From positions 18,011,325 through 18,075,324 of the forward strand of contig NC_057751.1 in assembly GCF_004010195.1 (NCBI RefSeq): DNA of 64,000 bases, in the 5' to 3' direction. The notes beneath the pieces are model-generated. The model saw nothing but the letters and a program-made list of their open reading frames with translations. It was not told the origin of the DNA and did no database searches. The position numbers and the translations under genes were made by a program. Position 1 is the first letter of the stretch, and each line of letters begins with the position of its first letter. Shown piece after piece: positions 4,796 through 60,745 of the stretch. Source of the DNA: Chiloscyllium plagiosum. Lineage: Eukaryota.

Positions 4796-6029
4796 AAAAT
4801 TTGGAATGTTTCAATGGGAAGTGACTAATATGATTAAAAACACACCCATTCTCATTGAATACTATTCAAATATCGTTCAGCATAACTCTGGCAAGTCTTA
4901 TTCTCTTTAAAATCGATAGAGTTGATAATAAACCTTAAGTGTAACCTCATTAACCAGGAAAGTGGAGCCCACTGAATGAGTCCAATGACCAGAAGATGTG
5001 ATCCGTTCTCAGAGGCCACAACGCCCGATGTTCCGAATGACAATCACCACAGAGATAACTAAACCAGAAAGAAAAGCACTAAGGGAGTTTTAGCATGTCT
5101 CACTGCAAATGAACTTCTCAGTTACAAATTCAGATTCATTGAATTGCAAGAGTTCATCATAAAAGAATTTGAATCAGTCCATGGAGAATCATTTTAAGAC
5201 CAGGTTCACGGGTTAACACTGACAGCGCCGGAAAAACAGAGAGCAAGAGTGCAATGGAATTAATTAAAGAACACTAAATCTCATAATGAGAACAATTTAA
5301 AATATTGATGTCTGTTATCAGAAAATGGCATGGATTGCTTACTCGGGCATTTCCTCTGTATTTGTCCTTCTCCGTCTCAGAGGTGGGAGTTGCAGAAAAC
5401 GAACTTCTAAGTATTAACAAAAGACAAAGCTGAGGTGAGGAGTTCTTTAATTATAGCTGCTAGTTCATATAATAAAGGGAAGGACAGCATCAAGGTCCCA
5501 ATGGCATGGAATGTACTTCTGAAGAAGTGTGAAACCTCAGTAACAATTATTAAATCTTGGACCTTTTCTCTCCATTTCCATCAACATTCAATCCCACCAG
5601 GACAGTCAAACAATTGGTAGTACCATGTGATTAATGACTCAGTCGCACTGCACCAATATATCAATGCAACTGACAGTCTCCATATCAATTATCACTCCAT
5701 CTTGCCTACATATCATTACTCGCATCCTATTGACCAGTCTTTCTTCACATAATTATAATGCCATGGAAGACGCTCCTCCCCGTACCAAACCTTCCACTCC
5801 ATTGAATCATTGCTCTCATGACTTACTGGTCATCTCAGTGCCCGTTAAATCGCACTCCTAACATTGTCAATGCACTCATGCTACTAGTCAGTTCCGAAGT
5901 CAATCAAAAATGTCACCTCGCACACTGCCATCTCTCCCACTCTGATGGTCATATCTATCAGCACTCTTGCTCATAGCCTGTATGATGTTTCCAAACAGAT
6001 CAGTGCCCACATCCACCATTGGGAGAAAC

Positions 6030-6205
6030 GCAGGTCCACAGGCGCTGGAGATCAGTGCTGAGAGTATGTTGGTGGAAATGCACAGCAGGTCAGGCAGCAT
6101 CCACGAAGCCGGAGAATGGACGTTTTGGGCCGTCGGCCTTCGATTGTCCTGCTTTTCAAAAGCTGCCTGACCTGCTGTGCTTTGCCATCATCACAGTCTC
6201 GACTC
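6030..6205. mobile_element. Fold-back PLE-terminus element, decayed
   Basis: gcacagcaggtcaggcagc (6080) is inverted against gctgcctgacctgctgtgc (6162); ribozyme core lost. Confidence 0.75.
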
Positions 6206-10471: not shown

Positions 10472-11246
10472 GAAATAAGATAACAAGAATCCAGAGAAAG
10501 TATATTCCTGCTTAGTGAAAGAAAAATCAGGGAATGCTGGATGACTGAAAAAATTGAGAATTTGTTTAAGATAAAAAATGAGGTATACGTCAAGTATAGA
10601 CAGGATAGATAAAATAAATCCTCAGAAGAGCACTAAGTCATAAGCAATATACTTAAGAGAGAAATAAGGAGGGTAAAAAGGGGGCATGACATACCTTTGG
10701 CAAATAGAGATAACAAGAATCCAAAGACTTTTTACAAATACATTGAAGATAATAGGGTAACGTGGGAGAGATTAGGGCCACTCAAATATCAGCAGGGTGG
10801 CCTTTGAGTAGAGATGCAGGAGATGGGTGAGATATTGAACGCTGAGATTGCACCAGTATTTACTGTGGAAAAAAGATATGGAAGATATAGAATGGAGGGA
10901 AACAGATGGTGACTTCTTGAAACATGTCCATACTACAAACGAGGACGAGCTAGATGTCTTAAATGCATCAAAATGGGTAAATACCCAGAAGCTGATCAGG
11001 TGTACCGCAGAAAACTACGTGATTGCTGGGTCTCTTACTCAGTCATTTGCATCATTCATCGTCACAGGTGAGGTTCCGGAAGACTGGAGGTTGGCTGACG
11101 TGGTGCCACTGTTTAAGAAAGGTGGTAAAGGCACGCCAGGGAACAATAGAACAATGACCCTGACTTTGGTGGTGATCACGTTGTTGGACAGAATCCTAAG
11201 GGGCAGGATGTACATGCATTTGGTTAAGCAAGGACAGATCAGGGAT

Positions 11247-11330
11247 TCTGGATCAATGGTGCTGGATGAGCACAGCAATTCAGGCAGCATCCTACGAGCA
11301 GCAAAATCGACGTTTCGGGCAAAAGCCCTT
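11247..11330 (-). mobile_element. Short PLE-terminus element inserted into the CR1 RT region
   Basis: ggtgctggatgagcacagcaattcaggcagcatcc..tcgacgtttcgggcaaaagccctt interrupts CR1 between agggat and ggctttgtg. Confidence 0.8.
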
Positions 11331-16213: not shown

Positions 16214-17205
16214 GACCAGTTGGAAGAACATAGCAACCCAGGCAGCATACGGACGTGAAGAGATCAACGTTTCGAGTATAACATTTTTTTCAGTTCTGGG
16301 TGTCAGGGGATCTACAGGTTCAGGGGCATTGGGAAGGGTTTTCAGTGGGGAGAGGAGCGTGTTGACAGAAAGGAAGAGGTGAACGCATGCAGATTGCATG
16401 CTCTTTTAGATAGATGGGAGGAATGAATATGGATGGAAGCTGGAAGGAATGGCGGATCAGAGGACTGGAATGGAGAGGAATGGGTTGGAAAGGGAGTCGG
16501 GGATGGGAAGAGAAGATTTTTTGAAATTGGAGAAAACTTCACTGAGTTCTCCCATTTCAATAACCTCTCTTCCATTTCCCTGATGCCCTTTCCAGCACAT
16601 TCCCCTCCGTTCCATTGGAGGAACAACACGTCATCATTTGAATGGGGCGAAAATGAGGTGTTATTCCTCCAAGTTTCGTTCTGATTCGCTTTAGCAATGG
16701 AGGAGGGCAACGATGGTCAGGTCAGAAAGGGAGTGAGAGGAGGATTTCAAGTGGGCAGTTCCTGAGAGGTCAGATCAGCCCCTGTAAGCCCGGCTGAGAT
16801 GCTTGGAGAATCTTACCCTGAGTTTGTGCTTGTTGTCACTGGGCAGCCAGCAACCTGGAGGAAACAAAATTATCTTCTCCAAGTTCAATTAACATCCCTT
16901 CCCACCCTGGTATGACTTTTCATCCTCACCCCTTTCCATTGTTCTGATCGATCCTTCCTCCCATCGATCTACCAAGTCGTACCGTCGACCTGTGTTCCCT
17001 ACCTCACTAGCCCTCCCTTTTACCGACGGAAACGCTGCCGCAGTTTATCTGCAGCTCCCCATGCAGGAACCTCCAGTTCTGAAAACAGGTTATACCCGAA
17101 ACCTTGAACTATCCATCACCTGCTGCTGCCTGGGTTCTTGTATTCTTCCAGCCTTCTGCTTGTCTGGCTTGAAATCCCAGTATCTGCAGTGTTTTTGTCT
17201 CTACC
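16214..17205. mobile_element. Inverted (fold-back) Penelope-like insertion with GIY-YIG C-terminal remnant and 11-bp TSD
   Basis: Minus arm encodes FSKHL..AHLKSSSHSLSDLTIVALLHC*SESERNLEE*HLIF. Plus arm ends in the terminal repeat with a decayed hammerhead (17075-17110). CTTTCACAGCA flanks both sides (16203-16213, 17206-17216). Confidence 0.8.
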
Positions 17206-18519: not shown

Positions 18520-20254
18520 AACAATTCACGAGAAACAAAGGAGACACTTCAGGTGCAAACTGTAACCCTGCGAGTGAGCATTGTTCAAATAAAGGATAAA
18601 AGAACACTCTCCAGCTGGTTGATCGATATGCCAACCTAACAATCATTTTTGCTGTTTGAGATCGAACACTTGTCGAACATGATATACTGGCAAGTGGTTG
18701 CTATGATAAGGAGTTGAGAAAGAAACATCTCAGAAGAGGACTGAAAATTAAAATCGAAATGACCAGTTGCTCAAGGTCAGCTTTTCCTTATGAAATTCCC
18801 AAATTTGAAGTTCCGCTCTAATGAGTGGTGTCCCATGAATTGCAAAACAAAAATATAATGGCACGAAAATAGGTTATGACTGGATCATTGAGAAAATGCA
18901 TCAGGACTTCCAATTTGTTTCAAGTCTTAAATTGCGTCATTTAACCACGATTAATATGCGGAATCTCACACTGGGAGCAATACCCGTACTTCGGGAATGT
19001 TCTGGGAGTGTTTCAGAACAACTCAGTGGTTTTGCTTTCTCTGTTCAATGGTTTGGATGAATGCATGGGCAGGCTCGATTTTGCTGAGAATCGGAGAGAC
19101 ACAGAAGCTCAGCACATGTTCACAAATCCTGAACACTGTTGTGAAGTGTCTGACGTTGTGTGCAGTCTATTCCAACACAAGCTTTCGCCAGAATGTTCCC
19201 TTTTAGTGACTACTCGTCCCATTTCATGTCATTAATTGGAAAAGGCTTGAGATCAGCATCTGATCTGAAATCCTGGGAGTTGAGAGTGCTTAGCAGAAGG
19301 AATACATCAAGATGTGTTTTGGAGATTGGTAAATGCCAGCAGCCGTTTTCAAACACGTGGAGGAGAATGAGATCATGTTCACCTTGGGCTACAACGGTTC
19401 GGACTGCTGGATCCTGGGCCTATCACTGGGTCCCGTCTTCACACCACGCAACAGGAAACAGCGGAACCTTCCCAAGTCCATCACTCACCTATATTCCCAC
19501 TATATTTGGAATATTCTGGAAATCCATGGCCGAGAGTTTGAAAACTCCTATCATGTATTACTAAGGATTGATGAGATGGCCTTCACTCGAGTTTCTGACA
19601 AGATGAAAATATGTTTCGAAATGGAGCTTTGAAAATGTACCACATCAAACACTCCCAGCTTCTGTCTGCGTTTCTGATGAAACGTTTGGAGGAAAATATT
19701 TCTGCCAAGAGTGTAGTTTTCAACATCCCGCACCTCATCATTCAAGTGTTTGTGGCTGCACGCTCTCAATTCCTCACTACAGAATACGGAAATATCCAGA
19801 AGCTCCTCCGTGAATCCCACAGAAATGATGATTTTGGTTTCAGACATTTCTCCGAATTCTTGATGTTCTATCCTCCCCACAGTCAGCTCAATTCCTTGAG
19901 CAGTGTCTCGGTCCATTTTGTCGTCAAGCAACCTCTTGCATGATTGATTGGGTGAAGCACAGGTTTTGGAGCATTTTGTGAAAACATAAATACTGAACCT
20001 GTAAACACGAGCCACCTTGAACTTATTTCACTATGAATTCGAGTCTCAGAGTAAAGCACTAGCTCAGAACACAGTGGAATCTATGCAAGCACTTGCATGT
20101 AGCGAGTTGCAACTGAACAGACTGAGTGTGTGGTCCTGTCTCAGGCTATTGATCTCTGTGTGACAGTAAAACAGCCCGAGCAAAAAAGATGCATCCTTGC
20201 TTCCGAGATTCTACAATGACTAGGATGTGTACTACGCATATGCCAGACGTTGAG
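18520..20254 (+). pseudogene. NLR (NLRC3/NLRP-like) pseudogene copy 1, large NACHT exon
   Basis: Walker A remnant SGVP*IAK (TGA at 18836), GYDW..FQFV, Walker B remnant LSLFNGLDEC, CEVSDVVCSLFQHKLSPECSLLVTTRP, AAVFKHVEENEIMFTLGYN..CWIL, PHLIIQVFVAA. GT donor at 20255. Many frameshifts and stops. Confidence 0.9.
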
Positions 20255-21526
20255 GTAATTCCTGATTTCCAGTTGTTGGATGAATTAGTAGACAGACATG
20301 CATTATTTTGTTGCTTTGTCATAAAAGGACTGAGTTGAACAATTAAATGATAGAAACAACTTCAAAACATACAGTATCAATAATGCTTAATATCGATCCC
20401 TTTGGCTCAGGAGGGACTTTACAGTATTTTCCACTCAGCAAGGCGAGATCACTGGAAGTGGCTGACGTATTTATTGTAATTCAGCTGCTGAGTCCAGATG
20501 ATGGAATATAAATACAACATTTTTTTATTAACCAGTGCATATGCCAGTTGATAAAGATGTCCAAAATGTAAGTAACACAAACAGAGTAAAATAAACATAA
20601 TACAAAAAGTGTACACATTAGAGTTATACATTGTTTATGTATAGCTAAACAATAGTGTATATGATTAACTGAAATAATAATACAATTTGCCTTAAATAAA
20701 ATGTACTGGCGAAAATGCAGTAAACGACCGTCACTTCGGGAGTAAAGGTTCACCAGTTTTGATAAGTGCTAGTTTGGAAGTTGCCAGGTAAAACAAGGTA
20801 TCCTGTATCTGTATAATGTAGAAGCTAACAAAAAAAAAGCCAAACGTTTTTCTCAACTGCCATTTTCTTTCGAAAAGAGAAAACAGTATGTATTCAGATT
20901 GATAATCGTTCCACACTTAGTCCTATTGGGTGCCTTGCCAAGGGAAGATTTCTCGGTTGGGAAAACAGAAATTCGTGTAATTATAAATGGTTAACATCAT
21001 TCGCAGTCTTGAGGATTTACACTCGTGAACTTCTACCTCTTAAAGCTAATATGTTGTGAGAAATTAGCACTAGAGTACAGACACACAGCAGAGAGTGGAA
21101 AGGCTTCAACAACATTGGGCAGGACTTGGGCAAAGGGCAACCAGTGTCACGAGACATTTCTTCCAATCCAATTCACGTGTGAGACACCTCTCTTCATGGG
21201 ATATTTTCGAATCTTTCAAAAATCTGATCATCGGTCACCAGAATGTTACAGTAAAGTAAACCAGTGGGAACATCCATAAACAATTTTGATCCACGGAGGA
21301 ATAAGATAAGACTGGAGCATCCTAGAAGCAGGAGAGTCTTTACTGCCCATTTTTTGAACGTAGTTGAACAGAGTGAGATTCATTATCAAGGATGGAGAAA
21401 TGTATTCCATTCACTTCCACAATTTTCTTTTCTGTATTAATATGCGTTCTAATAACGGCAACATCAATAAATGTCATTATCAGAAGCGAGGTTTGATTCG
21501 CGATGATTCAAATTCCATTTGCTAAG

Positions 21527-21613
21527 ATTGAATTGCAATGAACTGGGAGCTTCAAGCGTAAAAGTGTTCTCTGAGTCTCTTAGACATTCATACTGAAAGA
21601 TGCAGAAACTGCA
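21527..21613 (+). pseudogene. NLR copy 1 LRR exon (87 bp, ribonuclease-inhibitor type)
   Basis: AG..GT bounded; LNCNELGASSVKVFSESLRHSY*KMQKL. Confidence 0.8.
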
Positions 21614-21749
21614 GTAAATACTGAAACTGTATTTATAATAACTGAATGTTTGACACTGCGTGTTTTACTGATATCAAGCACAGAGCTATCACTATTCATT
21701 AGATTTGTTCGGATATCTGTTTCTGTTTCATCTTCATTTATGATTAAAA

Positions 21750-21922
21750 ACTCTATAGCAAAACGTACTGCTAGATAATTGACCTGAGGATCTCCCCTCG
21801 GCTCTTGGTACAAACAGGTCGCTGATGGACCTGATTCTGGGTAATAGTGAACTGGCAGATACAGCAGTGAAGCTATTGTTTTCGGTTCTGAAACATTAGG
21901 ATTGCAACACGCCCACTTGAGA
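21750..21922 (+). pseudogene. NLR copy 1 second LRR exon
   Basis: EDLPSALGTNRSLMDLILGNSELADTAVKLLFSVLKH*DC. Confidence 0.7.
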
Positions 21923-21981
21923 AAATGGCAGGCTCTCTGAAAATGTTGTAGCAACTGTTGTTCGACATGACAGAATATTTG

Positions 21982-22665
21982 TGTTTTGAAGTTGAAGCCG
22001 CATATTGTACCTTTCAGAGAGAGTGAAAGCTAGCAAAAACCTGCATGTCACAGATTGTGCTGGAAAATGTACAGGTGTAACATCTTGGGGTATACCTTGG
22101 ATAAGGACTTGTTTTCACAGCAGTTAAGATTCAGCCAATTCAGTTAAACTCTACCCCAAAGTACCGCACACAAACAAATTGGAAAGTTACTGCTTTGACA
22201 GCATCGAATCAACGAAATGAGCTGATAGCTTTGGGAATAAAAAGTAGCTGTTTTAAACAGTTAATCAGAGAAAGAGCACTGCCACCCATTGTCACACAGA
22301 CTGCCCGAAACGCTTCTCTCCAAAACGTACAGTTTTCATATGAAAACTCTATGCAGCAGAAGACCGAAGTTGACACAGAGAGATCGACAAAGAAAGGGAG
22401 TTAGACACCTGAAGACAATACACGTGGTCTCGTTTTCAAAATTGACTTGCTTCAAATTAAATAAAGGTTTTATCAGATCAGTATATTGTTATACAGAGTG
22501 AGGTGGGCAACAAATCTTTAAGAGAAAGGAGTATTACAGTTGTAGAGAGTTGTTGTTTAATGTTCTCTTTCGGAGTTAAAGAATAATTTTTTTGTCTTTA
22601 AATAGTGAAGTTTGGTTATTCTCTGTCACTCATACATTAACAGATTTCGGGGCGAGATGAACTGA
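21982..22665. mobile_element. Solo-LTR-like repeat, family B
   Basis: Starts TGTTTTGAAG. Shares ttcagccaat(t)cagtt, ttt(a)agagaaagga and tttaaatagtga blocks in order with 61883-63181. Confidence 0.55.
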
Positions 22666-22865: not shown

Positions 22866-22954
22866 TTGAAACTTTATTGCTGGAACAGCACAGCAGGTCA
22901 GGCAGCATCCAGGGAACAGGAGATTCGACGTTTCGGGCACAGGCCCTTCTTCAG
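22866..22954 (-). mobile_element. 89-bp PLE-terminus element with intact hammerhead core and 15-bp flanking direct repeat
   Basis: Minus strand CTGAAGA-a-GGGC ctgt GCCC-GAAACGTC-gaatctcc. GCTATTACTGGATAG occurs at 22851-22865 and 22962-22976. Confidence 0.85.
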
Positions 22955-23212
22955 TAATTGAGCTATTACTGGATAGCTCAATTAAGAATGAGTGACAACA
23001 TGCTCTTAAAATTGCTATAGAAGTTCTGGGGTTTGAAGATGATACCCAAATTTTCCAAGAAAATGTAGAAAGAAATGACCGTACTTGTAGGTCCAATGTG
23101 CCTGGACTCTGACAACATACGTCAGTAGAATAAACAAGAAGGCATACGGCATGTTCTCCTTCATCGGGATGGGTATTGAGTACAAGAATTCACAGGTCAT
23201 ATTACAGTTGTA

Positions 23213-23424
23213 GCAAAAATTGTGTTGCTGGAAAAGCGCAGCAGGTCAGGCAGCATCCAAGGAGCAGGAGAAGCGACGTTTCGGGCATGAGCCCTTCTTC
23301 AGGACTCATGCCCGAAACGTCGATTCTCCTGCTCCTTGGATGCTGCCTGACCTGCTGCGCTTTTCCAGCAACACATTTTCAGCTCTTATCTCCAGCATCT
23401 GCAGTCCTCTCTTTCTCCTAGAAG
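23213..23424. mobile_element. Fold-back PLE-terminus element, 71-bp arms, 14-bp TSD
   Basis: Arms 23221-23291 and 23305-23375 pair at 70/71. ATATTACAGTTGTA at 23199-23212 and 23425-23438. Inserted in a CR1 fragment. Confidence 0.92.
23270..23307 (-). ncRNA. Minimal type-I hammerhead ribozyme motif
   Basis: gagtc-CTGAAGA-a-GGGC tcat GCCC-GAAACGTC-gcttc. Core intact; one mismatch in stem I. Confidence 0.75.
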
Positions 23425-26779: not shown

Positions 26780-27887
26780 AATTCAAATGAAACACAACAA
26801 GACATTCACGTGCAAACTGAATAATTCCAGTCAGCACTCTTCCAATAAAGGACAACGTGTAGACTTTCCATTTGGTTGATCAATTAGTCGAGCCAATAAT
26901 CATTTCTGCTGTACAAGATTGGACACTTTTGAATATGAGCTGCAGGCAAGAGGACGAGACAATGAGGAGTCGAGGAGCTGAAATCCAGGGATTTATTAGT
27001 GCTAAGTGGATGGAATAATTCAACAATTGTTTGGAGATTGGAAAGTTTTTGAGAGCTAGATCCTGTAAGCCATATGTTACGATCCGTCATACTGCTGGAT
27101 CCTTCACACGAAGAAACAGAAAACAGTGCATGTCCCTAAGAGCATCGTTCAACTATATTCCTAAAATTTTCACAACTTTCTGGTTAACCATAGCTGAGTC
27201 GTTGAAAATCCCCGTAATGTGCCGCAGAAGCTTGGTGGGGTGGCCTTCGATGGAGTCTCTGAAATAATTTTGTGTTTAGAAATAGAGATTTTGCGCAGTA
27301 CGATCTGAAACCCTCCAAGTTCCAGTTTGGAATGGAACATTTGAAGAAAGATGTTAATGCCCTGAGTGGAGTTTACATAGTCCCGCACTCACCATCAAAA
27401 CGTTTGCAACTACACTCACATAATTCTTCACTCCAGACCCTGTGGACATCCAGAAACTCCTCCGTGAAGCCAATAGTAAAGAATTATGTTCGATTTGAGA
27501 TTTTTTTCTACCCTTTCTTTCTGCTTTCTCCTCCCCACAGGCATGTCGGCTACTCGAATACTTGATTGATTAATTTCTTCAGCAAGCAGACTTTTGCTCA
27601 ATTGACTGGGTGAAGGAGAAGGTTGGAGCACACTTTGGAAATATAAAAACTGAAAATGTAAAAAGGAACCTCCGGAAATAATTTCAGTATCTGCTTGTGT
27701 CTCAGAATACAACTTTGCATCGTACCACAGTGGCATTAATGATTGGATTGGATTTCACGAGTTGCAACTGACCCCGGTGACTATGTGATCCTGTCCTAGG
27801 CCACTATTCTCTGTGCGACAGTAAAACAGCTTGTTTCAGAAAGATGCATTATTGTGTATTATTACTGCACAAATGCCAGGCATTGTG
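26780..27887 (+). pseudogene. NLR pseudogene copy 2, NACHT exon with internal deletion
   Basis: Paralogous to 18520-20254. YELQARGRDNEES joins directly to the AEIQGF-like segment; SYCWIL and FRNRDFAQYDLKPSKF follow; exon ends HKCQAL followed by GT. Confidence 0.85.
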
Positions 27888-29049
27888 GTAGTTCCTGATT
27901 TTGAACTGTTGGAGGAGTCAGTGAACAGACATGCATTATGTTCTTGCACTATAATAAAAAGAAACGGCTGCTCAGTACAACGACAGAAGCAGATTCGAAC
28001 CTATCTATGTCAATAATGTGAGGACTCAATTCATAATTTTGTCAGCACTCGAGAATCCAAAATTGATCTTTGTTGATCACAAGGAATTATTTCACAGCCT
28101 GTATTCAATCAGCAAGTAAAGATCACGAGAAGTGGCTGGTCGGTGTGGTTTTGCTGTTCCTTAGTGAATAAGACTTGATAGTGGGATGTAAATGCAACAA
28201 ACGTTTTATTAACCAGCATTTATGTGCATTGATGAAGAGGTCCTCATAATGTAAAAACACGGAGTAAAGAATAGAAATTTCAAACAGGGAGTGGATACAT
28301 CACTGTTATTGTTTACTTACGTCATAATTCCCCTGAAATAATCATACAACTTTGACTTAAATAAAATTTACTGGTGGAAAGCACCCTCAACTAAATACGT
28401 GGAGATTGTGATTACACAGGAAACATCCGTTATGTCAGGTGTTTAATTTTTTTCCGGATGAGCAAAAGGTTCCAGTTAAAACAACGTTTGCTGTGCCAGT
28501 ATAATGTACAAGCTAAAAAAAACTGAAGCATTGTTCTCAATTGTCAATTGGTGAGAAATGTGCAAAGCAATTTGAATTTAGATTCGTAATCATTACATGC
28601 TTAATATAATTGACCGTGTCTTATCAAGGGAATATTCCTAGTTACAGAAAAAGGGAATTCGTTTAGTTGCAAACAGCTAACAGTCTTGATGTTCCACAGT
28701 CTTCCCCCTTAGCACTTAACGCGAAAGTGTCGTGAGGCATTTGCCAGAGAATGCAGCCACAGCACAGAGAATGTCAAGGCTTCTCCCAAAGTGGGCAAGA
28801 ACTGGGCCAAGTGCAGCCGGTGTCACCAGAAATTTCTTTTTTTTTTAAAATCTAATTCATGTTTGAGACTCCACTCAATGTTTGGAAGGAATGTTTGGAA
28901 AATTTACCAGAAGTCTGTCCAGTGTGCACGTGCAGTTCCGGAAACATAAACGTTGAACAGGGAGTAACATCAGAATCTCCTGCGAGCGCATCTTTTACCA
29001 AACAGCAAACGTTCGTGGGTAGAAATTTCGATTCTCGGGGAAGAAGATC

Positions 29050-36970: not shown

Positions 36971-37041
36971 GTAAAAACAATGACTGCAGATGCTGGAAAC
37001 CAGATTCTGGATTAGTGGTGCTGGAAGAGTACAGCAGTTCA
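36971..37041 (-). mobile_element. PLE-terminus element, distal fragment
   Basis: actgcagatgctggaaaccagattctggattagtggtgctggaagagtacagcagttca overlaps the 11247 variant. Confidence 0.7.
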
Positions 37042-37849: not shown

Positions 37850-39560
37850 TCCGGAATATAATGAACCTTACCCCACATACTTTGTCTCGGATTTCTGGTT
37901 AATTCCTGTTGTTACAACTTCATCAAGAAAGATGGCATCCCAGATTAAATATGACAACACGCTTTGCATCGTCGACTGAATAATGGCACCGACGGTTGAT
38001 ACCCCAAATGGCAGTCTCGTACATTGTTACAAATCCATATGGCATTAAACGAAGCAAGTTTCTATGAATTCTTAGAAAAGCGTGGTGTACATGGCTCATA
38101 TTCGGATTCATTAATCCCTTCTCCGCAACCAGCCCCCACCTGCCACAGTTGCAGACAAGTTCTCTGTGCAAATGATTTAGCATTTATCCACCGGGAGAAC
38201 TGGTTAACTGTTTGAATAAAGTTGCCTCAAATTGAAACCGATCCATCGATCTTCACAATTATTGGAAACATTGCTGTACATTCTGCTAACTACTCTTTTC
38301 TGCATTCCCTAAATTATCAGCTTTCTGACCCATGCCTCTACTTTTGCACTTAATGGCGCTGGATGGGCCTGTAAACTTGCATCTCAGTTCAAGTGCAAGA
38401 TGGTGAAAAATGTGTTGCTGGAACCAAGTGTAAGTTATCTGACTAACAGAAGGAGCAGGAGAATCGACGTTTCGGGCTTTCTTCAGGCTTATGCTCGAAA
38501 CGTCGATTCTCCTGTTCCCTGGATGCTGCCTGAACTGCAACGCTTTTCCAGCAAAACATTTTTCAGCTCTGGTCTCCAGCATCTGCAGTCTTCACTTTCT
38601 CCTCCTTCACGTGCAAGATGGTGTTGGGCCCTTTGACAGTCCCTGAACCTTCCTGAAAATGGTTTGGGTGGTTAATTCCGACTACACTTAGTCAGCTATT
38701 TTCTCCTCGAAAAATGTTGAGAAGTCAAGTTGAATCTTTCTGAACTGGTTTCGCCCCATAAAACTTGGGGAAGGCATTTTCTGACAATTGGTGTTAACTG
38801 ACCAAGGTACTTTACATACCACTCTGGAACTGGAATTGTACCTTTAGTCTGTAAAAGCGTTCCAAGTGTAAGTTATCTGTCTAACAGAAGTCACGTGCAA
38901 TCGGAAGTGTTGGTCACCATAGCAATTTTTTTAAAGACTGTTTCTGCAATCACTGATACAGCCATGTGGGGTCAACCTCCTTTAGAATCGGGTGCCCCTT
39001 TAACCAGACTTTGATGGGTTTAGATTTGAATGTTGTGCAGCATATAAACTGTTTTCAGGCAAATATAGGTGCACGTTCCATACTGGAAATCTTAATAAGT
39101 TAATTCTGGCTACTCAGACTTTTTTGTCTTCCTGATGACGCATGCCAACAGCAACTGCAATGGTTTGCTAGCGCACATACGGAGGACAGTGCTAAACATT
39201 TGTCCGTAGCTTGGATTTTCTTTTTTATTGTGGAGGGGTTGTGGTGTTTGCTGAGGGCTGACCTAGAGCCGATCTGTTTATGTGAAATCGTGTGTAACTG
39301 CATGCAATTGCATTCACTCAAGTATTATGTGCAAAGCTCAGTCGACCTGGAGAGAGTACCAACTTCCATAGGCATAATTATGTTTTCAACTTATCACTTA
39401 TCTAAAATCAACGCCAGCTGTAGTGCCTGTTCAAGTTCAGGACGGCTTCAGCTAGAATGTGCCTATTTTATCATTAAATTAATCCCATTAACATCATGAC
39501 TGAAATAACTTCATCGGCGCCAGTATCCTGTCACCAGAGTACCATCTATTCACGCATGCA
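37850..39560 (-). mobile_element. Decayed Gypsy LTR-retrotransposon gag-protease-RT fragment
   Basis: Minus strand ILAEAVL..QALQLAL (gag), PSFMGRN..RKIQLD (end of protease region), IVKIDGSVSI*GNF..TVNQF and TRLPFGVST..IIQSTM..AIFLDEV (YLDD equivalent). Confidence 0.8.
38406..38605. mobile_element. Fold-back PLE-terminus element inside Gypsy pol, 18-bp TSD
   Basis: TTCAAGTGCAAGATGGTG (38388-38405) vs TTCACGTGCAAGATGGTG (38606-38623); inverted arms around cttcagg. Confidence 0.88.
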
Positions 39561-41588
39561 TAGTACTTCCCACTAGTCTGGCGTCTGCATAATCACCTCT
39601 CAAAGTGAACTGAATCTCTAATATTCCTTTTTTTCTGCCAGTCACGGTTCCGTGATTCTACCGGATTAAAAGCCCCAGTCATATTCAATGAGGTTCACCA
39701 AGCTGACGTCGGTACAGGCATGATAACCGTGTAAGGATAGGCAGGCAAGGCCTGCATTCATTGGACTTACACATTGACAGAATTGAGAGGGGTAAAAAAA
39801 ACTATAATGATTCTGATGGAACCAGACAAAATGGACTTGGAAAAAATGTGTCCTATTGTTGTAAAATCGAAAGCTAGGATATTAACTTTTAATGATAGTA
39901 GGGTATCTATTTCAGGAAGATATGAAGAAACGTTTATTCCTTTACTAAGATTCTTCTGAATCGTTGTAATTCCCTTTCAGAAAAGGCAGTGAGTGTAGAC
40001 ACTTTCTTTTTTGTTTGTTAAGGCAGACACAAATATATTTTTGATTTCCAAGGGGTTGAAAGGCTATCAGGGAGGGATTGCAGATGTGGCGAATTGATGT
40101 GAAATTCGGATTGGACCGGATCTTATGGAATGGCTGTGCAGGCTGCTTCCTCATGCGTTCAAATGTTGGTGTCGCAGTTTCAATGGTAAAGGTGGACTGG
40201 TGCAAACACATTTTGCCTAGCTTGTATGTGGGCAATGCATTTCTGAAGTCTTGAGATGTATTGATAGAGAGTATCGCATCGATACACCACAGGATCCACT
40301 CTACTAGCTTTCAGGCGCATGGAGACGGAATGCAACTGAAATCCAATTGATAGCCTCGTACTCAAGATGGTTTGAGGTCTCACGTTACTTCGAAGGTATT
40401 GACGTATTTCTGCGACAGCCCATGTCTTATGTTCTGCATAATCCTGCTACTTTCTGTTACAGTTTAGAGTCTTACCGAGCCAAAGACTGGGGCTGTACTC
40501 TTCCCATGAAGCATCCAAACCTCTGGAGTTTTTCTTCATAAATTACGGTCTTCAATAATTTAAGTAGATGAATGAGTAAATGTGAGTGTTCTGTGGGGTT
40601 AATCAAAATTACTACAACTGGTTAGGTGCGTGATTCTGACCTGAGCTGTAGACTGATCCATTTATGCAAGATGGAAGAATGGGAAAATCGCCTTAAATTA
40701 ACACATTCTGTTAAGTGTTTAATCCTGATCGAGCCTGCAAGTTGATCCCCTGAGGGAAGGCAGAAGGTGGCCAGATTTAAATATCAAACTCAGCTAATTG
40801 CTGGGATTGGGGAGGCCTTGAGTATTTGATCCCGGTGCCAGTGTTTTATCTTGTTGGTTTGTTTTGCTTTTTGTCTTTGTTTGCATCTTTTTCATTTGCC
40901 TATTGGAGACCGATCTGCATTCAGGACCTGGTATGTGAGAATGGGATCGAGACACGCCGCAAGACTGAAGCGCCAGTCCCAACTTCAAGGTAATTTTATC
41001 CTGCAATGCAGGCCGGCACCCGTCCTTTTGTCCCAATGGAGGAGACGCTGAAACTCCACAATAAACATGAGAAATGCAACACGGAAGTTAGAGAATTCCC
41101 TTGTTGAGTTTCATGAAGTGCATAAGAGCCATCAGTCGCTTACAGTTACAATCTGGGTCAAAGTCCTCGGAAACCTTTCAGAAACCCTCCCACTGTACTG
41201 GCGCCTTATTCCCCTAAGTATCCCAAATTCCCGTCGTAGTCGGGATTGCTGCGGTTGATACTTCCCAAATAAGCAGGAATGCTGGCCACTTACAGAATGC
41301 TGTCAGAACTAGTTTAAGAGTTCACACTACTTGGCCACAATTTACTCGTGCAAGTACTCAGCAGGGGCACCAACAGAACGTGTTGGTGAAAGCATCTCGT
41401 GTTTCACAGCGATTGGTGGTAAAGCACTTCTTTGCCAAGGATTATGAAAGGTGAAACTCCACTTAACATGTCCTCGGCTCACTCTCAGTCCCGTGGCATG
41501 CTTCATGAGGCCCCAATCCGCTCTAGTGGACAACATTTTTAAATTCGTTAGTACAAATCTGCAGGATTCATAAATGCTTGCCTCACAG

Positions 41589-42495
41589 CTAACATAGTAA
41601 CAGTTGTGATACTGTCCCGGGAAAAGTGTGCTCTCTCCAAATGTGTCACTCGCTACCTGATGGCCATGGCAATGGCTGATGTGCCGGTTATTATCGTTGA
41701 CCTCATATTGCGACACATTCCATTTGTATATATGGACGAGTATCATTTCTTAGAAGGCATTCCTGTGTGTAATATCCGCGCTGTCCTGCTTTATGCAGCC
41801 ATTTGACTGTTTTGCCTGGTTAACTGTCGCTTTCACCTTTGATTGTTTTGCGGCTATTTGCTGCCCAATTCTGAAAATTAAATATTGCAATATAAAAACA
41901 ACGGCTGTGGTTCTGGAAATGGTGATTGTCTTGAGCTGTTTGAAGAATATTTTCTGGTATTTCATTTCACAGGTCAGTATTATCCGAGGAACTGAACATG
42001 TTTTTGTTGTATTAAAAGAGAAGTCAAGTTTTCTCCAGCATGGGGAGCAATTGAGTTATTTCATTACATACTAACCCCGGGAGTTGCCTTTACTCTTATT
42101 CTGCTTTTCAATTTTTTAACGGGCAGACACGTTGTAGTGACCAACAAATTCCGCAAGATATTGCACATCAAAACAACAGGAAGAGAGCCAGAGGCCAAGA
42201 GCTGAAGAATCGAAGGAGTTCCATCACTTTATTGTTTTTTTTTTAATCTCAGGTAATTTTCTACTGTTATGGTCAGTATCATTGGTATTTTCCATAAATT
42301 GGAGAATGGTAAGTTTGGGATATCAATTCCAAGATCTCCCTCTTGGCATAATGGAACTGGGCCACATGCTCCAAGTGCTCAGTTGCTGCACAAACACTGC
42401 AATTTATGGCATCACACATCCTACGTTCAGACAGCAATTGAAGAATATGGTGAACTATCCTTTTACCCCACTTTAAAAATGGATTAAACATTGAT
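41589..42495 (+). pseudogene. GPR139-like class A orphan GPCR pseudogene copy 1 (main exon, TM1 end to TM7)
   Basis: AG acceptor, then NIVTVVILSREKCALSKCVTRYLMAMAMAD, TVAFTFDCFAAICCP (DRY equivalent mutated), KYCNIKTTAVVL, ELGHMLQVLSCCTNTAIY. Frameshifted. Confidence 0.88.
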
Positions 42496-44049
42496 AATTG
42501 CTGAAACATTACACCAGCAACAATCAATTCTTCATCTATTTCGATGCAATCTTCACGCTCTGTGTCAGGTTTATACACGTCTGTGTAACTGAATTATGCA
42601 TCCAGTTCCTCTAATCTGTGATTTTTGCATCTCCAAACTGACAGAGTGCAACGTATTTTCTGCATTCCAATTGGTTCTGTTGTACCAATGTTTCGGTTTG
42701 TGTGTGTGTCTGCATGTGTGAGGCGTTCGTATAGTCTGCGCGTAAATGTAAGATACATCGACAGAGGATAAGCTTCAGTAACGTGCCCACTACTCGAGAG
42801 TGATCACGAAATGATGAAATGTCGTCCAGTTAATACGTGGGAATGGTAATAAACATGGGAATGAACCCAATCTATAAATTTACATGAAACAAATAAAAAC
42901 TCGTAAAAGCACATTTTCTTTATGGTAGACTGCAAAAGAAACAGAAATGTTCGCATGGTTAAAAAAAAACGAATGAGCAGTGCTTCAAAAGTGAGTGGTT
43001 CCAAATGAACCTGTTTTGCAAAAACCTGGTGTAGTGTAATTTTTCGCATGTCAGATAAGCACTGTTGGGCTCTTAAAGTGACATTTCATAACTCTCAAAA
43101 AGAGCTCTCTTTACAGAGAAACATTAAATTTAACGATCATTTGACAGTGAACGAAACTTGTCAATGCTGTGGAGCTGTCTGGATAAGTTTAGGATTTTTA
43201 ATGAAAAGCAATGAATGATTTTTCGGAACAAAGGGAGACAGTCGCATGAAAACGGAAATTAACACGAAAAGATTCGAAAAGGAGATGGTAAGAACTTCGA
43301 CAAAGTTAGATATCGGGATGACGGTTGGAAAATAAAATATTAATCCCTGAATGAATGGAACGCTGGACCAAACAATGGGAGAGGAGGGAAATGGTGTGAT
43401 CCTTGAACAAATAACTTTTAGCTCTTTGTATAGATGAAGACATTAAAATGTCCAAAACAGAGAATCAGGTGTTAAAACGAGAGGAAGAAGAAATGATTGT
43501 AAGAAATCATTATCATTATTGACGAACTTAATGAAATATATGGATGGCAAGAGTGTTGGGGAAAAGTGGTAAATTAGAAAGCCACAATAATATTCTCTTG
43601 AAGAGCCAATGCCGATACAATGTTGCAAATGACCACTGTCAGTGTTGTACTACGGCTGTGATTCTCATGGAGAAAGGCAGCTGGGTAAATGTTCATCAGT
43701 TTCCAGCACCTGAACATTTACATTTTAGAATCTCACACTAAGTGACAGCAAAACTCGTGTAAGATTCGGTTTAATTTTACCAAATTCCTTTGTTCTGGGA
43801 AGCATAAGTGGATCAGAGAAGCAGAACATCTGATATTCAGCATCTTCCAAAAGGCTGAATTGAATGTGTTGAGTCAGGACAGCTAAGCTGAAAGCCGTGG
43901 TTTGCTCCCTTTGAACTCTGTTGGAATCCAGGCACACTACCCATTCCTAGGGCCGGGATATGAGCAGGAAAAGTGTCCAGGCGCAACTCCTGGAAGCCCG
44001 TGGTTTGCAACTCCACTAGCATGTTTGGAACACTGTGGAGCATACGTCT

Positions 44050-44795
44050 ATCACGTCATCTCTCTTCCTTCCTCTCTCCAGCGTGAAAAATCCTAATTGA
44101 TTCAACGTCTCTTTGTAAGACAAGATCTACAGGCAGCACACTGGTAAGTCTCCTCTGCACCCTCCCTAAAGCATTCATACCCTACTGTAATCAGCCAAAC
44201 TGAATGGATGCAATATTCCAAGTGTGGTCTTCTCAGCGTTTTGCAGAGCCGTAGTAATATCTTACGGCTCTTAAAGTTAATCACCCTGTTAATGAAAGCC
44301 AAAACACCATACGTTTTTTTCAGGAGGGGATTTGGGGTGCGCCGGGGTGAAGGGGGGGGGGGGAGGTATGGTGGGGTGGACAACTTTAAGAGATCTATGT
44401 ATTTGGATCCGAACATCTTGCTGTTCCTCAACGGTGCCAATAGTCATGTCTTTAACACGGTATTCAACATTCAAATTCAAAATAATCCAAAATGGATCAT
44501 TTCACATTTCTCTAGGATGAACGTCACCTGTCACATTTCAGCCCAGCATTGTATCTTGTTACTGTCATGTTGTCGACGGCGACAACCCTCGGCACTATCT
44601 ACAACAGCACCGACCTTTGTGTTATTGGCAACTTTACCAAACCACCCTTCTACTTCTTCACCCAAATCACTTATAGAAACTACAATGGGCAGAAGCGCAA
44701 GAACAGATGTCGACACAACGGCACTCCAGTCAGAATATTTTCATTCACTACCACTCACCGTCTTCTTTCGGCCAGCCAGTTCTGTATGCAGAAAG
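44050..44795 (-). mobile_element. CR1 RT 3' fragment; paralogous to the start of 56905-59525
   Basis: LCKTLRRPHLEYC and GKVANNTKVGAVVDS. Confidence 0.85.
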
Positions 44796-44799
44796 GCTG

Positions 44800-44887
44800 A
44801 ATGCTGGTGAAGAGCTTATGGTCGAAACGTCGACTCTACTTCTCCTCGGATCTGCCTGACTGGTTATGCTTTTCCAGCGCCACACTC
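44800..44887 (+). mobile_element. PLE-terminus element with degenerate hammerhead
   Basis: CTGGTGA-agagcttatggtc-GAAACGTC-gactc..ctgcctgac..cttttccagc. Confidence 0.75.
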
Positions 44888-45491
44888 TTCTGTCTTTTTC
44901 TCCAAAGCTTGGATATTTCCCAAATGTTTGCTGGGGAGGGGCGTGTGGCTTGAATAAATGGAGTTTCTGACCCACCTAATGTCCAGCGTGGCACCCACAT
45001 GTTCTGCGTGGCTGGGTGCTCCTAGTCAATCCTGGATGTCAGCGGGTCTGATAGATGTGTGGGTGCTCTTCATGTGGGCCTGCGAAAAATGTTGGAACAG
45101 CGTGTGGGTCTGTTGAAATCGCTGAGGGAATTCAAACTTTTCATAAAGTATATCAGTGATTCTAATGAGTTCCTGGTCAGTAGTCCTGACCTTCAGCGCT
45201 CCGACGGTCTTATCGTTGACCTGGACTCCTTGATGTCTTTTTATTGGGTGTTCAATTCTTATTCCTGTGGTTGTGGGGCCTATTTTTCCAGCTTTCGGAT
45301 TCGTCCTCGGGTTAATGGTTCCAGCGTTGGTAATCGTAATTTGTCAATCAGGGCATCCTCAGACCTACAAGTAGATTGAAAATACTTAAGAAAAAGATCT
45401 GCTTTCGACAGCTTGCCAGGATTTACCTTGCTCTGGCACCAACTCAGATGACCTTGGAATGTTTCTCCAAAATATTACGTTGTTCAAACCT

Positions 45492-53210: not shown

Positions 53211-53452
53211 TCCTGACGTCAATAAATGCTTAAGCAGTGTCACAATCACTCTCCCAACCTCAGCCGGAGTGGTCGGAGTGGTCGGAACATACAAAATAAT
53301 GACATATTTGGCCAAACACTGAACTGTATATCTATAGCCTTGCTCAGAATCTGACTCAGATTCTTCATTGCAATTTCGGCTTGTATTATTCAGAACGCAG
53401 GAATTTGTCAGAATTGATTAAAGTTAAAAAATGATTACATATAAGGTAGAAC

Positions 53453-53523
53453 GTGGTGCTGGAAAAACACAGCATGTGAGAAGAAGAAGAATCGACTTTT
53501 CGGGCATAAGCCCTTTATCAGGA
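53453..53523 (-). mobile_element. PLE-terminus element, internally deleted, degenerate hammerhead
   Basis: Minus strand CTGATAA-a-GGGC ttat GCCC-GAAAAGTC-gattc. Confidence 0.75.
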
Positions 53524-53639
53524 AACTTGTGCTTTGCTTAATGCTGAGTAGTTTGGCCAGTTGAATTCTATATCGAACACAGAAATTTACATTTATCTCT
53601 AACATAAGATGAAGACGTGTCTAGTCTACCTGCTTAAGA

Positions 53640-55330: not shown

Positions 55331-57736
55331 CTCTGCTTCTATTTCTATGAAATCTGCACTCTTGATGTCTGATTATCGGCACTTTTGAAACGATATTCTA
55401 CATCCAGCGCTTCAGATCTTTGAGTTTTGCGACTCTAAATTGCCTGTTCAACATTCTTTTCTGCAGAGCAGTTGGTTCCATTGTATCAATCATGAGGATA
55501 TTTGCTGAATCCAAACACGCGCATGTGTGTGTTTGTGTGTGTGTGTGTGCACGCGCACATCTTTCAGTCTGTCTGTGTATCGGTTGCACATTCTCTCCAT
55601 GTCTGTGTCTAAGTGTAAGATGGAGCATAAGGCAAGCTTCACTAACATGCTCACTACTCAAGAGTGATAACAAAATGATGAAATGTCGTCCAGTTTGAGA
55701 GCGATAAACATACAAATGAACCGAATCCATACACTTAAAAAGAAAACACGTGAGAGCATACTTTGTTATGGTGGACTGGTAAAGAAAGAGAAATACTAGC
55801 ATGGTAAATATGGTGAAGGAGCAGCGCCCCAGAAGTTAGTAGCTCCAAATAAACATGTTGGACTATAATCTGGTGTTGTGTGATTTTCGGCATGGTAAAT
55901 AAACTGTGATGCGCTCTAATCGTGACATTTCACAACTCTCAAAGAGCATACTGTTCACAAAGATACACTTGAATGAGATGGGAGCACTAATCTTTTAATT
56001 TAAGGATCATTAGAAAGTGGATGAAATTGGTCAATGCTGTGAAGCGGTCTCGTTAAGTTAGGTCTTTTTTTTCAAAATGCAATCGACGGTTTGTCGAAAA
56101 GGTGGGCGACAGCTGCACGGAAATGTAAAATAACAACAAGTGATTCACAAAGAAAATGAAAGGAACTTCGACAAGTTTTGATAAATAGATGACGATTGTG
56201 AAAGCAAATATTCATCCCTGATTGAATGGAACTCTGTAATTAAAACTGGGAGTTGATGAAAATGCTGTAGACGATCAACAAATACCATGCAGCTCTTTGT
56301 ACAGAGGAAAGCATTTTTAAAAAATGTACAAAAACAGAAATCAAGTACTAAATAGGGAGATTGGAGAAACGATTAGAAACAACCATCACCAGTGACGAGC
56401 ATGTACTGCAGTGAAAAGCTTGGAAGAGAGTTTTGTGAAAATGTGGGAAATTGGCAGCAGGTAATGATACCCTCTTGAACAGCCAATGGAAATACAATGT
56501 TGAAAAAGACGTCCATCTGCGCTGTATGAAGCCTGTGATTCCAGAATTTAAGAATCTTAGACTAAGTGACAGAAAATGTCGTGCATTTTGGGTTTAATTT
56601 TGCTAAACTCTTTTGTTCTGAGAAGGACCCAGTCGATCAGAGAAGCAGAATATCAGCTGTTAGAAATCTTACAAAAGGCTTGGTTTACAATGGTAAGTCC
56701 GGGCATTTAAGCACAAAGCCGTGATTTGCTCCCTTTGAACTATGTGAGAATCCAGGCTCATTTCCAGTTCCCAGTGAGCAGGAAAATACTCCAAGTGCAA
56801 AAATCTAATCTAATCTAATCTGATCTAATCTCCTGAAAGCTCGTATTTTGGAAATGGACTGGCCGCTCGTACACAGTGGAAGATCCACTGAGGGAATCAC
56901 GTCTGTCAAGTCACGTTTCTTCCTTCTTCTTTCCATTGTGAAAAGCCCAATTCACTCAACTTCTGTTCATACAACAAGCCCTCTGATCCAGGCAGCATCC
57001 TGGTAAATTCCCTCTGCACTCTCTCTACAGCATCTACATTATTCCCATAATGAGGCAAACAGAAGTGTGCACAATATTCTAAATGTGGTCCAAAAAACGT
57101 TTCACTGAGCTGCAGCAAAACCTCGCTGCTTTCCAACTCAACCTCCTGTTAATGAAAGCCTTCTGAACAAATTGGGTAGTAACGTTTACGGTTCTACGTT
57201 CGTGGATAGCAAGATCCCGCTGTACCGCCACACTTCCTTGAATGCTGTCTTTAAGAATGTTTTCAGCATTCAAATTCGACCTTCCTAAATGAATCAGTTC
57301 GCATTTATCCAGGTTCAACTCGAACTGTCTCTTCTCAGCCCAGCTCTGAATCCTGCCAATGTATTTTTGTAGCCTGCAACACTTCTTGTCACTATCTACA
57401 ACACCAACAACCTTTGTTCATCGGCAAACTTACTGACTCACACTTCCACTTCTTCATCCACGTCATTTATAAAAAGTAAAAAAATGCAGACGCCCAAGAA
57501 GGACACCACACATCACGACCAGCAGGCAGAATGCTTTCCATATACTACTACCTGTTGTATTCTTTTCGTCAGCCAATTTTTCAGCAGCAAGCCACATTCC
57601 CCTGCATCTCATATCTCCTAACGTTCTGAATGAGGATACGTGGGGAACCTTATCAAATACCTTATTGAAATCCATTTCCAACACTTCCACTGCTCGACCT
57701 TCGTTACATTCAAATAACTCAACAAGATTTGTGAGG

Positions 57737-57859
57737 AGAAAGTGAGGTCTGCAGACGCTGGAGATCAAAGCTGAAACTTTATTGCTGGAACAGCACAGCA
57801 GGTCAGGCAGCATCCAGGGAACAGAAGATTCGATGTTTCGGGCACATGCCCTTCTTCAG
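57737..57859 (-). mobile_element. Single-unit PLE-terminus element with hammerhead core and about 12-bp TSD
   Basis: Minus strand CTGAAGA-a-GGGC atgt GCCC-GAAACATC-gaatc..cactttct. AGATTTGTGAGG (57725) vs AGACTTGTGAGG (57858). Confidence 0.85.
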
Positions 57860-57873
57860 ACTTGTGAGGCATT

Positions 57874-58078
57874 TAGATTACTTACAGTGTGGAAACAGGC
57901 CTTTCGGCCCAACAAGTCCACACCGACCCGCCGAAGCGCAACCCACCCATACCCCTACATGTACTCCTTTTTACTAACACTACGGGCAATTTAGCATGGC
58001 CAATTCACCTGACCTGCACATCTTTGGACTGTGGGAGGAAACCGGAGCACCCGGAGGAAACCCACGCAGACACGGGGA
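57874..58078 (-). mobile_element. HE1-type V-SINE, 5'-truncated
   Basis: Close reverse complement of 11530-11730. Confidence 0.9.
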
Positions 58079-59524: not shown

Positions 59525-60745
59525 TCCTGAAGGGGAGGTGTTAGAAGACTTAAACGTTTTCGATAGAGAAATCCCACCACGCTTAGAAGGTTGTAGCCCC
59601 GGTTTTTGTCGGAGGCTAGGGAGGAAAGATTGGTGCCCTTTATGGAGATATTTGTATTATCAACAACCACCGGTGAAGTTTCCAAAGATTGGTGTGTGAA
59701 TAATGTTGTACTATTATTTTTGAACGCCTGTTGGGAAATGCGGAGAAACGACAGACCGTGAGCTAAACGACTATGTTGGATAAGTTGTTATAGGGTATTC
59801 TGAGAGGTTGGATTTGTAGGCATTCGAAGAGGTAAGCACTCATTTGGGACAATTTGCATGGTTTCGCGCTTTGGACGAATATATCGGAATGGTTTCGTAT
59901 CACCTAAGGTTAAATCTCACGAGATCTAGGGTGAGATAAGCAAATGGAGCTTGCCAAAATGGTTTGGACGATTGAAGACAGTGGATGGTGATAGATGGTT
60001 GTTTTCTGGACTGAAGGACAGGAACTAGCGGTCTGAGGCAGGGTTTGGTGCTGAGTCCATTGTTAGTCGTCATTCATATCAATGATTTGGATGAGAATTT
60101 AGGCGATATAGCTGTTAAGGTTTCAAAAGAAATCAAGATTGATAGTGTAGTGGACAGGGAAACGGTTATCTGGGATTGCAGCGTGATTTTGATCATCTGG
60201 GCCAGAGGATGCTGGAAAGACAAATAGAGTTAACTTAGATAAATGCAAACTGTTGGATTTTGATGTCAAAGTAGGGCAAGTTTCCACAGTCAATGGTAAG
60301 GCCCTGTGGAGAGTTATAGAACAAAGAGATCACGGTGTACAGGATCACATCTCCTCCAAAGTGGAGTAACAAATATGCACAAAACGTCGATTCTCCTACT
60401 TCTCTGATGTTGCCTGATCTGCGGTGCTTTCCCAGCACCACATTCTAGAGTTTCGTCTCCAGCATCTGCACTCCTCACTTATTCCTGTTAAAGAAGGCTT
60501 TCAGCATGCTTCGTTTCATTGTACAGAACATTAAGTATTGAAGTTTGGACGTCGCGCTGCAGCTGGTCAAGACATTGGTGAGGTCACGTTTGGAGGACAG
60601 TGTTCAATTCTGCTCGCAGTGTTATGGAAAGGGTATTATCAAACTGGAAAGAATGAAAAAGAAGGCGTTCGAACGTGAATGGACTGGAACATTTGAATTA
60701 AAAGGAATGTCTGCATTGGCGAATACATTTTTTCGTGTAGAGTAG
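59525..60745 (+). mobile_element. Decayed CR1 RT fragment containing a PLE-terminus piece (about 60378-60485, plus strand)
   Basis: VLSPLLVVIHINDLDEN and LVKTLVRSRLEDSVQF; insert aaacgtcgattctcct..ccagcatctgcactcctcactt. Confidence 0.8.

Follow-up and report, generated by a model that had tools for sequence, protein, structure and literature searches.

The short repeats in this stretch of the Chiloscyllium plagiosum genome raise a question: why should copies that carry a predicted self-cleaving ribozyme break off at the front edge of its core rather than at the site where it would cut? Within the 64,000 nucleotides analysed (hereafter the window; 40-45% GC), a first-pass annotation had singled out 22866-22954 and 57771-57859, which both terminate at cttcttcag, the first base of the core, and had counted about 3 differences between them. 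Their near-identity is borne out, with a corrected count of 4 differences over 89 ungapped positions, 3 of them internal. The two copies are 96% identical, lie 35 kb apart and have subfamily features in common. We checked whether the shared end could reflect segmental duplication of one insertion, a possibility that the annotation had itself raised. This is excluded by distinct target-site duplications (TSDs; 15 and 12 bp) and by unrelated flanks (25 and 28 identities per 100 ungapped positions; local scores of 18-20 over 500 nt), and the two are thus independent insertions.

A short Penelope-like family with a predicted hammerhead

Coordinates within the element follow its sense strand and count from the C of CUGANGA (+1), which places the predicted hammerhead cut at +28/+29. 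A profile search of the window recovered 14 arms at E <= 3.2e-7, which make up 11 insertions of what we call family A. Outside this census stand two arms of a second family (B) and 11 weak matches with E >= 0.017 (best shuffle E 1.3). Four coded runs from three coded organisms were also aligned to 57680-57872 at 80% likeness, giving 17551 (X1), 2153 (X21), 14853 (X9) and 6045 (X15) matching records. X21 consists of raw RNA reads, and the X1 and X9 records are contigs.

The second of the cited copies belongs to a long, tail-bearing form of the element that spans 57737-57859 on the minus strand (+1 to ~+123). Its predicted minimal type I hammerhead core (57832-57859, minus strand), recognized from its sequence and, for helix II, from predicted folds, comprises a CUGAAGA box (57853-57859), helix II (57840-57851), GAAAC (57835-57839) and the cleavage triplet AUC (57832-57834; GUC in most copies), with the predicted cut between 57832 and 57831. 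Farther downstream lies an optional 3′ tail of ~34 nt (57737-57770, minus strand), which is missing from the copy at 22866, and a sharp loose end at 57733-57734 is seen at the 3′ end in all four runs. The TSD copies, read on the plus strand, occupy 57725-57736 (left, 12 bp) and 57858-57869 (right, with 1 mismatch, 8 bp exact and 2 nt of microhomology with the element start).

Exact matches to the motif pattern were found twice against 0.05 expected, and the motif fits the minimal hammerhead of Penelope-like elements (PLEs), with the CUGANGA and GAAA boxes around helix II and a palindromic remnant of helix III. It agrees with the min-HHR of metazoan PLEs, as set out in the accessible part of PMC4209133, in both boxes, in the extra base before helix II, in the G-C closing pair, in a putative helix I of 4 bp, in the palindromic remnant replacing helix III, and in occurring mostly as single motifs or opposite-strand pairs. 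It differs in that helix II here has 4 bp and in that most window copies lack the 5′ strand of helix I and therefore cannot form the complete motif; that strand is present in the read consensus, where it is complementary. The same part of PMC4209133 describes minimal PLE hammerheads as weakly active. An Rfam scan at the gathering score returned no hammerhead match. Helix II appears in predicted folds, and its covariation (44 cells, of which 79.5% are paired, with a single compensatory change) is not significant against shuffles (47-128 of 500), in an alignment that includes flank bases of truncated copies. Beyond the window, pattern scans of genome contigs and of viral contigs yielded 0 copies, and the 6 loci found in metagenome contigs were set aside as chance matches because their flanks do not resemble the element. 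A tRNA scan returned 0 hits.

The family-A insertions, which are 70-210 bp long and ORF-less, have the anatomy of a PLE insertion unit and work like one, although the family is known here from these ORF-less copies. In the accessible text of PMC8557442 and PMC3846280, such a unit of endonuclease-positive (EN+) PLEs consists of a pLTR, an adjacent inverted and 5′-truncated copy, and a one-sided tail of 30-40 bp. TSDs of 12-15 bp, four of them exact and two with a single mismatch, accompany 6 of the 11 family-A events, and none was found for the other 5; at random positions, at least 8 exact bases were seen in 3 of 200 trials, with a maximum of 10. The 3′ ends that these TSDs define are bimodal, falling at +88, +89, +89, +90 and +91 (5 arms) and at +123, +126, +132 and +133 (4 arms). 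A head-to-head inverted copy is present in 3 of the 11 events, and also in the family-B event. All three inverted family-A events combine one short arm with one long arm, so that the tail is one-sided.

The first of these inverted insertions (23213-23424; 14-bp TSD; arms identical at 74 of 78 positions) joins a minus-strand arm from -2 to +90, which has the core and no tail, to a plus-strand arm from ~+8/+11 to +132, which has the tail. The second (38406-38610; 13-bp TSD) shows the same type of junction between a minus-strand arm from -1 to +88, carrying a 7-nt deletion in helix II, and a plus-strand arm from ~+9/+11 to +133. In the third (6021-6204; 14-bp TSD), a tailed minus-strand arm from +6 to +126 faces a plus-strand arm from +27..+29 to +91. 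The junctions of the first two, at ~23301-23303 and ~38486-38487, both consist of AGG/CCT at the core start. A mini-hairpin of CCT/AGG at the cDNA 3′ end is not predicted to be stable, and we read this junction as microhomology annealing.

The arm that bears the core lacks the tail in two of the three inverted events. Fold-back of a single cDNA cannot add a tail, and we therefore infer that inverted pairs arise from two priming events, one per tail site, on opposite strands. Such two-site, two-strand priming agrees with the behaviour of PAc (Poseidon of Anolis carolinensis), for which extension of both strands and two internal starts are reported (Frangieh et al. 2024, PMC11167929).

The inverted junction at 23293-23312 (minus strand) also places GAGUC before the core, a sequence able to form 5 bp (-2.7 kcal/mol) with GAUUC, the 3′ strand found in most copies. 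Fold-back at this site could thus rebuild helix I by chance; the arm itself carries a substitution in the 3′ strand of helix I and is predicted to fold into a long junction hairpin instead. The tail end has splice-acceptor-like features at 23410-23420 (plus strand, in the 23301-23424 arm) and at 57733-57750 (minus strand), with a pyrimidine run followed by TAG in the former arm, and a CUCAC-like branch motif lies near the tail end of other copies. PLEs are known to retain introns. A 3′ splice site at -1 was considered and rejected, there being no AG at that position.

The 5′ ends and the state of the template

The 5′-most ends of the 11 family-A insertions, called by eye, lie at -1, +6, +7, +1, -2, +55, -1, +1, -3, +1 and +14. 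Seven therefore start between -3 and +1, and ten between -3 and +14, with 5 of the 11 events ending at -1/+1. Against a crude null that is uniform over 105 nt, the occurrence of 7 of 11 ends within -4 to +1 has a scan-corrected binomial p of 5e-5. No primary 5′ end among the 11 falls at the cut (+27 to +31), and none lies upstream of -4. The other four insertions begin at +6 or farther in, within the core or past it.

The short-form copy at 22866-22954 (minus strand, +1 to +89) has an intact core and an exact 15-bp TSD (22851-22865/22962-22976). Another short-form copy, 505-594 (minus strand), begins at -1/+1 within a 12-bp TSD that has 1 mismatch and overlaps the core start by 4-5 nt. The short-form copy at 53448-53524 (minus strand), whose end had been reported near 53523 and for which no TSD was found, retains three bases upstream of the core, from the 5′ strand of helix I. 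An old copy at 44804-44904 (plus strand) starts, by eye, at ~+1, and no TSD there passed the automatic test. The copy said to end at 38477 in fact extends across the helix II deletion to 38487 (-1). The later-starting single copies are those at 11243-11330 (minus strand, from +7), at 60374-60484 (plus strand, tail-bearing, from ~+14) and at 36972-37041 (minus strand, truncated at ~+55 and without a hammerhead); no TSD was found for the first two. These two lie inside fragments that we take to be CR1-like, and by eye ~10 target bases have been replaced at them. It may be that target deletion accompanies 5′ ends lying downstream of the core.

The clustering at the front edge of the core thus stands as first described, whereas the family boundary itself lies ~4 nt farther out, because GAAT follows at the loose ends in X1, X9, X15 and X21; in the sense orientation this is ATTC, which forms the 5′ strand of helix I. 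Among records that diverge in loop II, the consensus behind 57844 reaches GGAAT (sense ATTC and the C of the core) and then decays (179 contigs in X1, 241 in X9 and 54 in X15). Sequence shared by the family thus stops at -4, where the 5′ strand of helix I begins. These counts are to be read with the property of contigs that they collapse shared upstream sequence, and so under-count it, and over-count unique flanks. In X21, 294 reads are loose at 57859, with a consensus beginning GAATGAGGAGAG that continues for at least 12 more bases at an agreement of 0.5; longer copies or one highly expressed locus therefore exist, and any longer copy appears loose at 57859 by construction, the reference having no upstream sequence.

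Exact ends in the window are blurred by microhomology, as the element and its TSD have their first 2 nt in common at 57858-57859, and 4-5 nt in common at 590-594. Comparison of the 5′ flanks (60 nt) among the 8 single-arm copies shows no relationship, the best score being 17 against null percentiles of 16 (95th) and 19 (99th), and therefore no upstream RNA was carried along.

The proposal that the template was uncleaved is supported by the insertions, 10 of 11 of which span the cut site, and by the X21 reads, in which 932 of the 1046 reads over +31 still cover +28 (89%). The remaining 114 of 1046 (11%) make up a step in read depth that spans the cut. Because read-depth steps track reference mismatches, and similar steps occur at other mismatches, this value is an upper bound, and ends at the cut make up at most about 11% in X21. 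A secondary arm at 6140-6142 starts at +27..+29 and is compatible with cleaved RNA; given this arm and the X21 step, a minor cleaved class may exist. Among the places listed for the read alignments, no pile-up of molecule starts or ends was seen, in single-cell polyA reads that are ill-suited to reveal RNA 5′ ends.

Strand information in X21 over 57736-57763 shows first mates on the plus and minus strands at ~520 versus 175 over the tail (~3×) and a skew of ~1.5× over the middle, hinting at sense transcripts or at internal priming near the tail.

A proposed RNA start at helix I and competing explanations

We consider the following account to be, on balance, probably correct: the template is an uncleaved RNA with its start at helix I, priming takes place inside it, and synthesis continues as far as the RNA 5′ end; the resulting short cDNA, which resembles a retroviral strong-stop product, is then joined to the target by microhomology. 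By analogy with PAc, both target strands would be nicked, and the Penelope reverse transcriptase (RT) would prime at two internal RNA sites bounding the tail, ~90 or 125-130 bases from the RNA start. The template would be uncut and, as the family boundary suggests, would start at -4, the first base of helix I, either at the transcription start of a pseudo-LTR promoter or at an internal promoter of the short copies. The RT would then run off the RNA 5′ end, and the cDNA would be integrated directly. Its last bases may be lost when it anneals to the end of the target, whether straight or folded back (as at 22955-22961), or to a second cDNA via AGG/CCT. Some such trimming must be assumed on this run-off account, since the unambiguous window ends lie at -3 to +1 and fall short of -4.

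Observations on PAc fit this account, and run-off where an RNA ends is the simplest interpretation of the pile-up. Its product length in vitro follows the template 5′ end, and in the anole element uncleaved RNA serves as template, ribozyme mutants leave the product unchanged and no reads end at the cut (PMC11167929). Position -4 is occupied by the A of a motif resembling the YYANWYY initiator consensus, as read both from the consensus of the X21 loose ends and from 17073-17079 in family B. This is weak evidence for an RNA start, since the motif is short (present at 1.2% of window positions), overlaps helix I and sits in a pyrimidine-rich context, and since families A and B are related. The Penelope promoter is placed in the pseudo-LTR upstream of the hammerhead in the accessible portions of PMC2377424 and PMC4209133. 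There, transcription of D. virilis Penelope does not begin at helix I but 46 nt before a 75-nt intron whose end lies at helix I. A downstream promoter element of the kind found in Drosophila LINEs (PMC2377424, accessible portion) would lie ~2 nt off the canonical spacing here and was not counted.

A probable trace of the joining step is visible at the copy at 22866. Seven extra bases at 22955-22961 are an inverted copy of target 22978-22984 and complete a 12-bp hairpin at 22955-22984 (z -6), and it is likely that the target 3′ end folded back, was extended and was then joined. The last bases of this segment resemble ATTC, and the copy may for that reason have reached -4. The apparent end at cttcttcag is thus partly set by the joining step. 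Template switching, one of the causes first suggested for the breaks, does occur at the ends, in the form of inverted junctions and target fold-back, but it resembles a joining step and not the cause of the stop.

The suggestion that the RT stops at the folded ribozyme is a poor fit. By the time the enzyme arrives at CUGA it would already have copied the 3′ strand of each of helices I and II, and therefore a fold in cis would be expected to stop it downstream of helix II. Strong RNA structure as a roadblock was likewise rejected, as whole-element folds are no more stable than those of shuffles (z -0.2 and -0.5). Family B serves as an internal control. Both arms of this inverted insertion (16214-17205; 11-bp TSD) run through the hammerhead and continue at least 200 nt upstream, which shows that the hammerhead is no obligatory RT stop.

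Arrest on a longer RNA could still occur just 5′ of the core if helix I were formed in trans within a ribozyme dimer, through the palindromic ACGU, or if a protein were bound there. We judge this unlikely, but it accounts for several observations. Minimal PLE hammerheads have been proposed to act as dimers (PMC4209133, accessible part), and a dimer would keep the helix I 5′ strand paired with another RNA when the RT arrives, leaving ends at -1/+1 as in 5 of 11 events. Moreover, PAc is predicted to form a protein dimer and its ribozyme needs protein (PMC11167929), and the two cDNAs per inverted event would fit two RNAs. Against such an arrest, the 4-bp helix I of family A has a duplex energy of about zero (+0.2 to +1.4 kcal/mol), the predicted homodimer of the core is not in the ACGU-paired form, family B reads through its hammerhead, and the read consensus spans the whole 5′ strand to -4. 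The size of the PAc product is also the same with ribozyme mutations (PMC11167929).

A further alternative, quite doubtful in our estimation, dispenses with a recurring stop: one or a few short masters were truncated once and then amplified as SINE-like passengers of PLEs, so that the boundary is inherited. The 96% identity of two copies that lie 35 kb apart and share subfamily features would follow naturally, as would the thousands of matching contigs and reads in three coded organisms, and non-autonomous pLTR-forming derivatives of Chlamys PLEs are described in the accessible text of PMC8557442. Yet the boundary is common to copies that differ in loop II and in 3′ sequence, and read-through from a master would carry 5′ flank, of which the copies have none in common. 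An RNA from such a master must still start at the boundary, and at that point the alternative merges with the account that we favour, in which the RNA starts at helix I.

Two other templates are very improbable. A circular or multimeric RNA, produced by ribozyme cleavage and ligation and copied for a single round, was suggested in the first-pass annotation and has been proposed for PLEs (PMC4209133, accessible part); by eye, 10 of 12 positions in the upstream consensus of X21 agree with the tail end, in low-complexity C/T sequence. No window copy is preceded by another unit or arranged in tandem, and head-to-tail joints from the 5′ edge are almost absent from the reads, numbering 2 of 17551 contigs in X1 and 1 of 14853 in X9, with none among those listed for X21 (2153 reads, from polyA libraries that miss circles) or X15. 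In addition, a single 5′ end is common to the +89 and +125-130 classes, an outcome not expected from one round of copying on one circle. The other candidate, an antisense RNA that primes itself such that the hammerhead end marks the start of synthesis, has been proposed for rotifer Penelope on the basis of head-to-head palindromic junctions (PMC3846280, accessible part). It is hardly compatible with PAc, whose RT initiates at the tail sites of sense RNA (PMC11167929), or with the microhomology and fold-back at the hammerhead end, which would be expected of the junction made last.

A broader form of the account that we favour holds that Penelope RNA in this lineage starts at the first base of the hammerhead, that the RT-binding site nearer the 5′ end gives rise to a retrovirus-like strong-stop cDNA which is integrated directly, and that the 90-130-bp copies form a Penelope-driven, SINE-like class with their own polymerase II promoter overlapping the ribozyme. 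This combination has a low likelihood. Were it correct, the hammerhead would be a control element of the 5′ leader, acting in decapping or as a promoter, and would not serve to process tandem transcripts. In any genome, the 5′ ends of PLE copies would then reveal where PLE transcription begins.

Relation to known elements

EN+ PLE units of Penelope/Poseidon and Neptune share with family A the head-to-head arms, a tail on one arm, TSDs, microhomology at the 5′ junction and a hammerhead near the 3′ end (PMC8557442 and PMC3846280, accessible text). Family A differs from them in its length of 70-210 bp, its lack of ORFs and the piling of its 5′ ends at helix I, and the accessible text of those papers describes no such pile-up. 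Parallels in PAc are two internal RT starts that bound a tail of 30-40 nt, extension of both target strands, uncleaved RNA as the main template and the absence of RNA reads ending at the cut; the PAc ORF starts in helix II. The main text of that study reports no clustering of genomic 5′ ends and no transcription start at the hammerhead (PMC11167929). Searching by title and the start of the abstract, with incomplete coverage of subscription papers, found no report of 5′-end clustering at PLE hammerheads, and Fig. S2 of PMC11167929 may show it.

Non-LTR retrozymes (bioRxiv 10.64898/2026.07.22.740005, accessible part) are likewise short, non-coding and derived from PLE pLTRs with a type I hammerhead. 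Their definition requires units in tandem and two or more complete hammerheads, whereas family A occurs as scattered monomers or as inverted pairs, with TSDs; none of its 11 events is a tandem copy, and head-to-tail joints are rare.

Retroviruses and LTR elements make a minus-strand strong-stop DNA, a short cDNA that runs from an internal priming site to the RNA 5′ end. The family-A product would differ in being target-primed and in ending up in the genome as a dead-end or SINE-like copy, whereas strong-stop DNA is passed on to the RNA 3′ end.

Previous work had already established this type of element, with its tail, its inverted pairs and its use of uncleaved RNA, which limits the surprise of the present findings. 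The role of the hammerhead in PLEs is still open (PMC8557442, accessible text) and the later steps of PLE integration are unvalidated (PMC11167929). If the account that we favour is correct, the junctions of a high-copy vertebrate family record the start and the uncut state of the template RNA, and the inverted pairs record two priming events at two tail sites. They would provide a cheap genomic test of the PAc model established in vitro, with capped ends at -4 as the precise prediction.

The related family B can be tied, tentatively, to an endonuclease-bearing PLE. It retains an apparent decayed endonuclease C-terminus at ~16646-16846 (minus strand), for which an exhaustive search returned 10 proteins at E <= 0.001; among the 9 of these that were scanned, 1 passes the Pfam GIY-YIG cut-off and 1 more matches weakly. 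The remnant itself gave no Pfam match and no word-index match, and an ORF combining RT with a C-terminal GIY-YIG domain is absent from all family-A copies in the window. Family B also contains a nested inversion, with ~16466-16614 being palindromic, suggesting several template switches in one event.

Other repeats surround these insertions. Decayed LINE-like ORFs are present in the window, and long repeated stretches of 0.7-1.8 kb lie at 19437-21982, 27102-28876, 41588-44300 and 55634-57160. A different repeat, which resembles a shark SINE, occupies 57873-58078, 4 nt past the right TSD of the cited copy, and has 3 further matches in the window.
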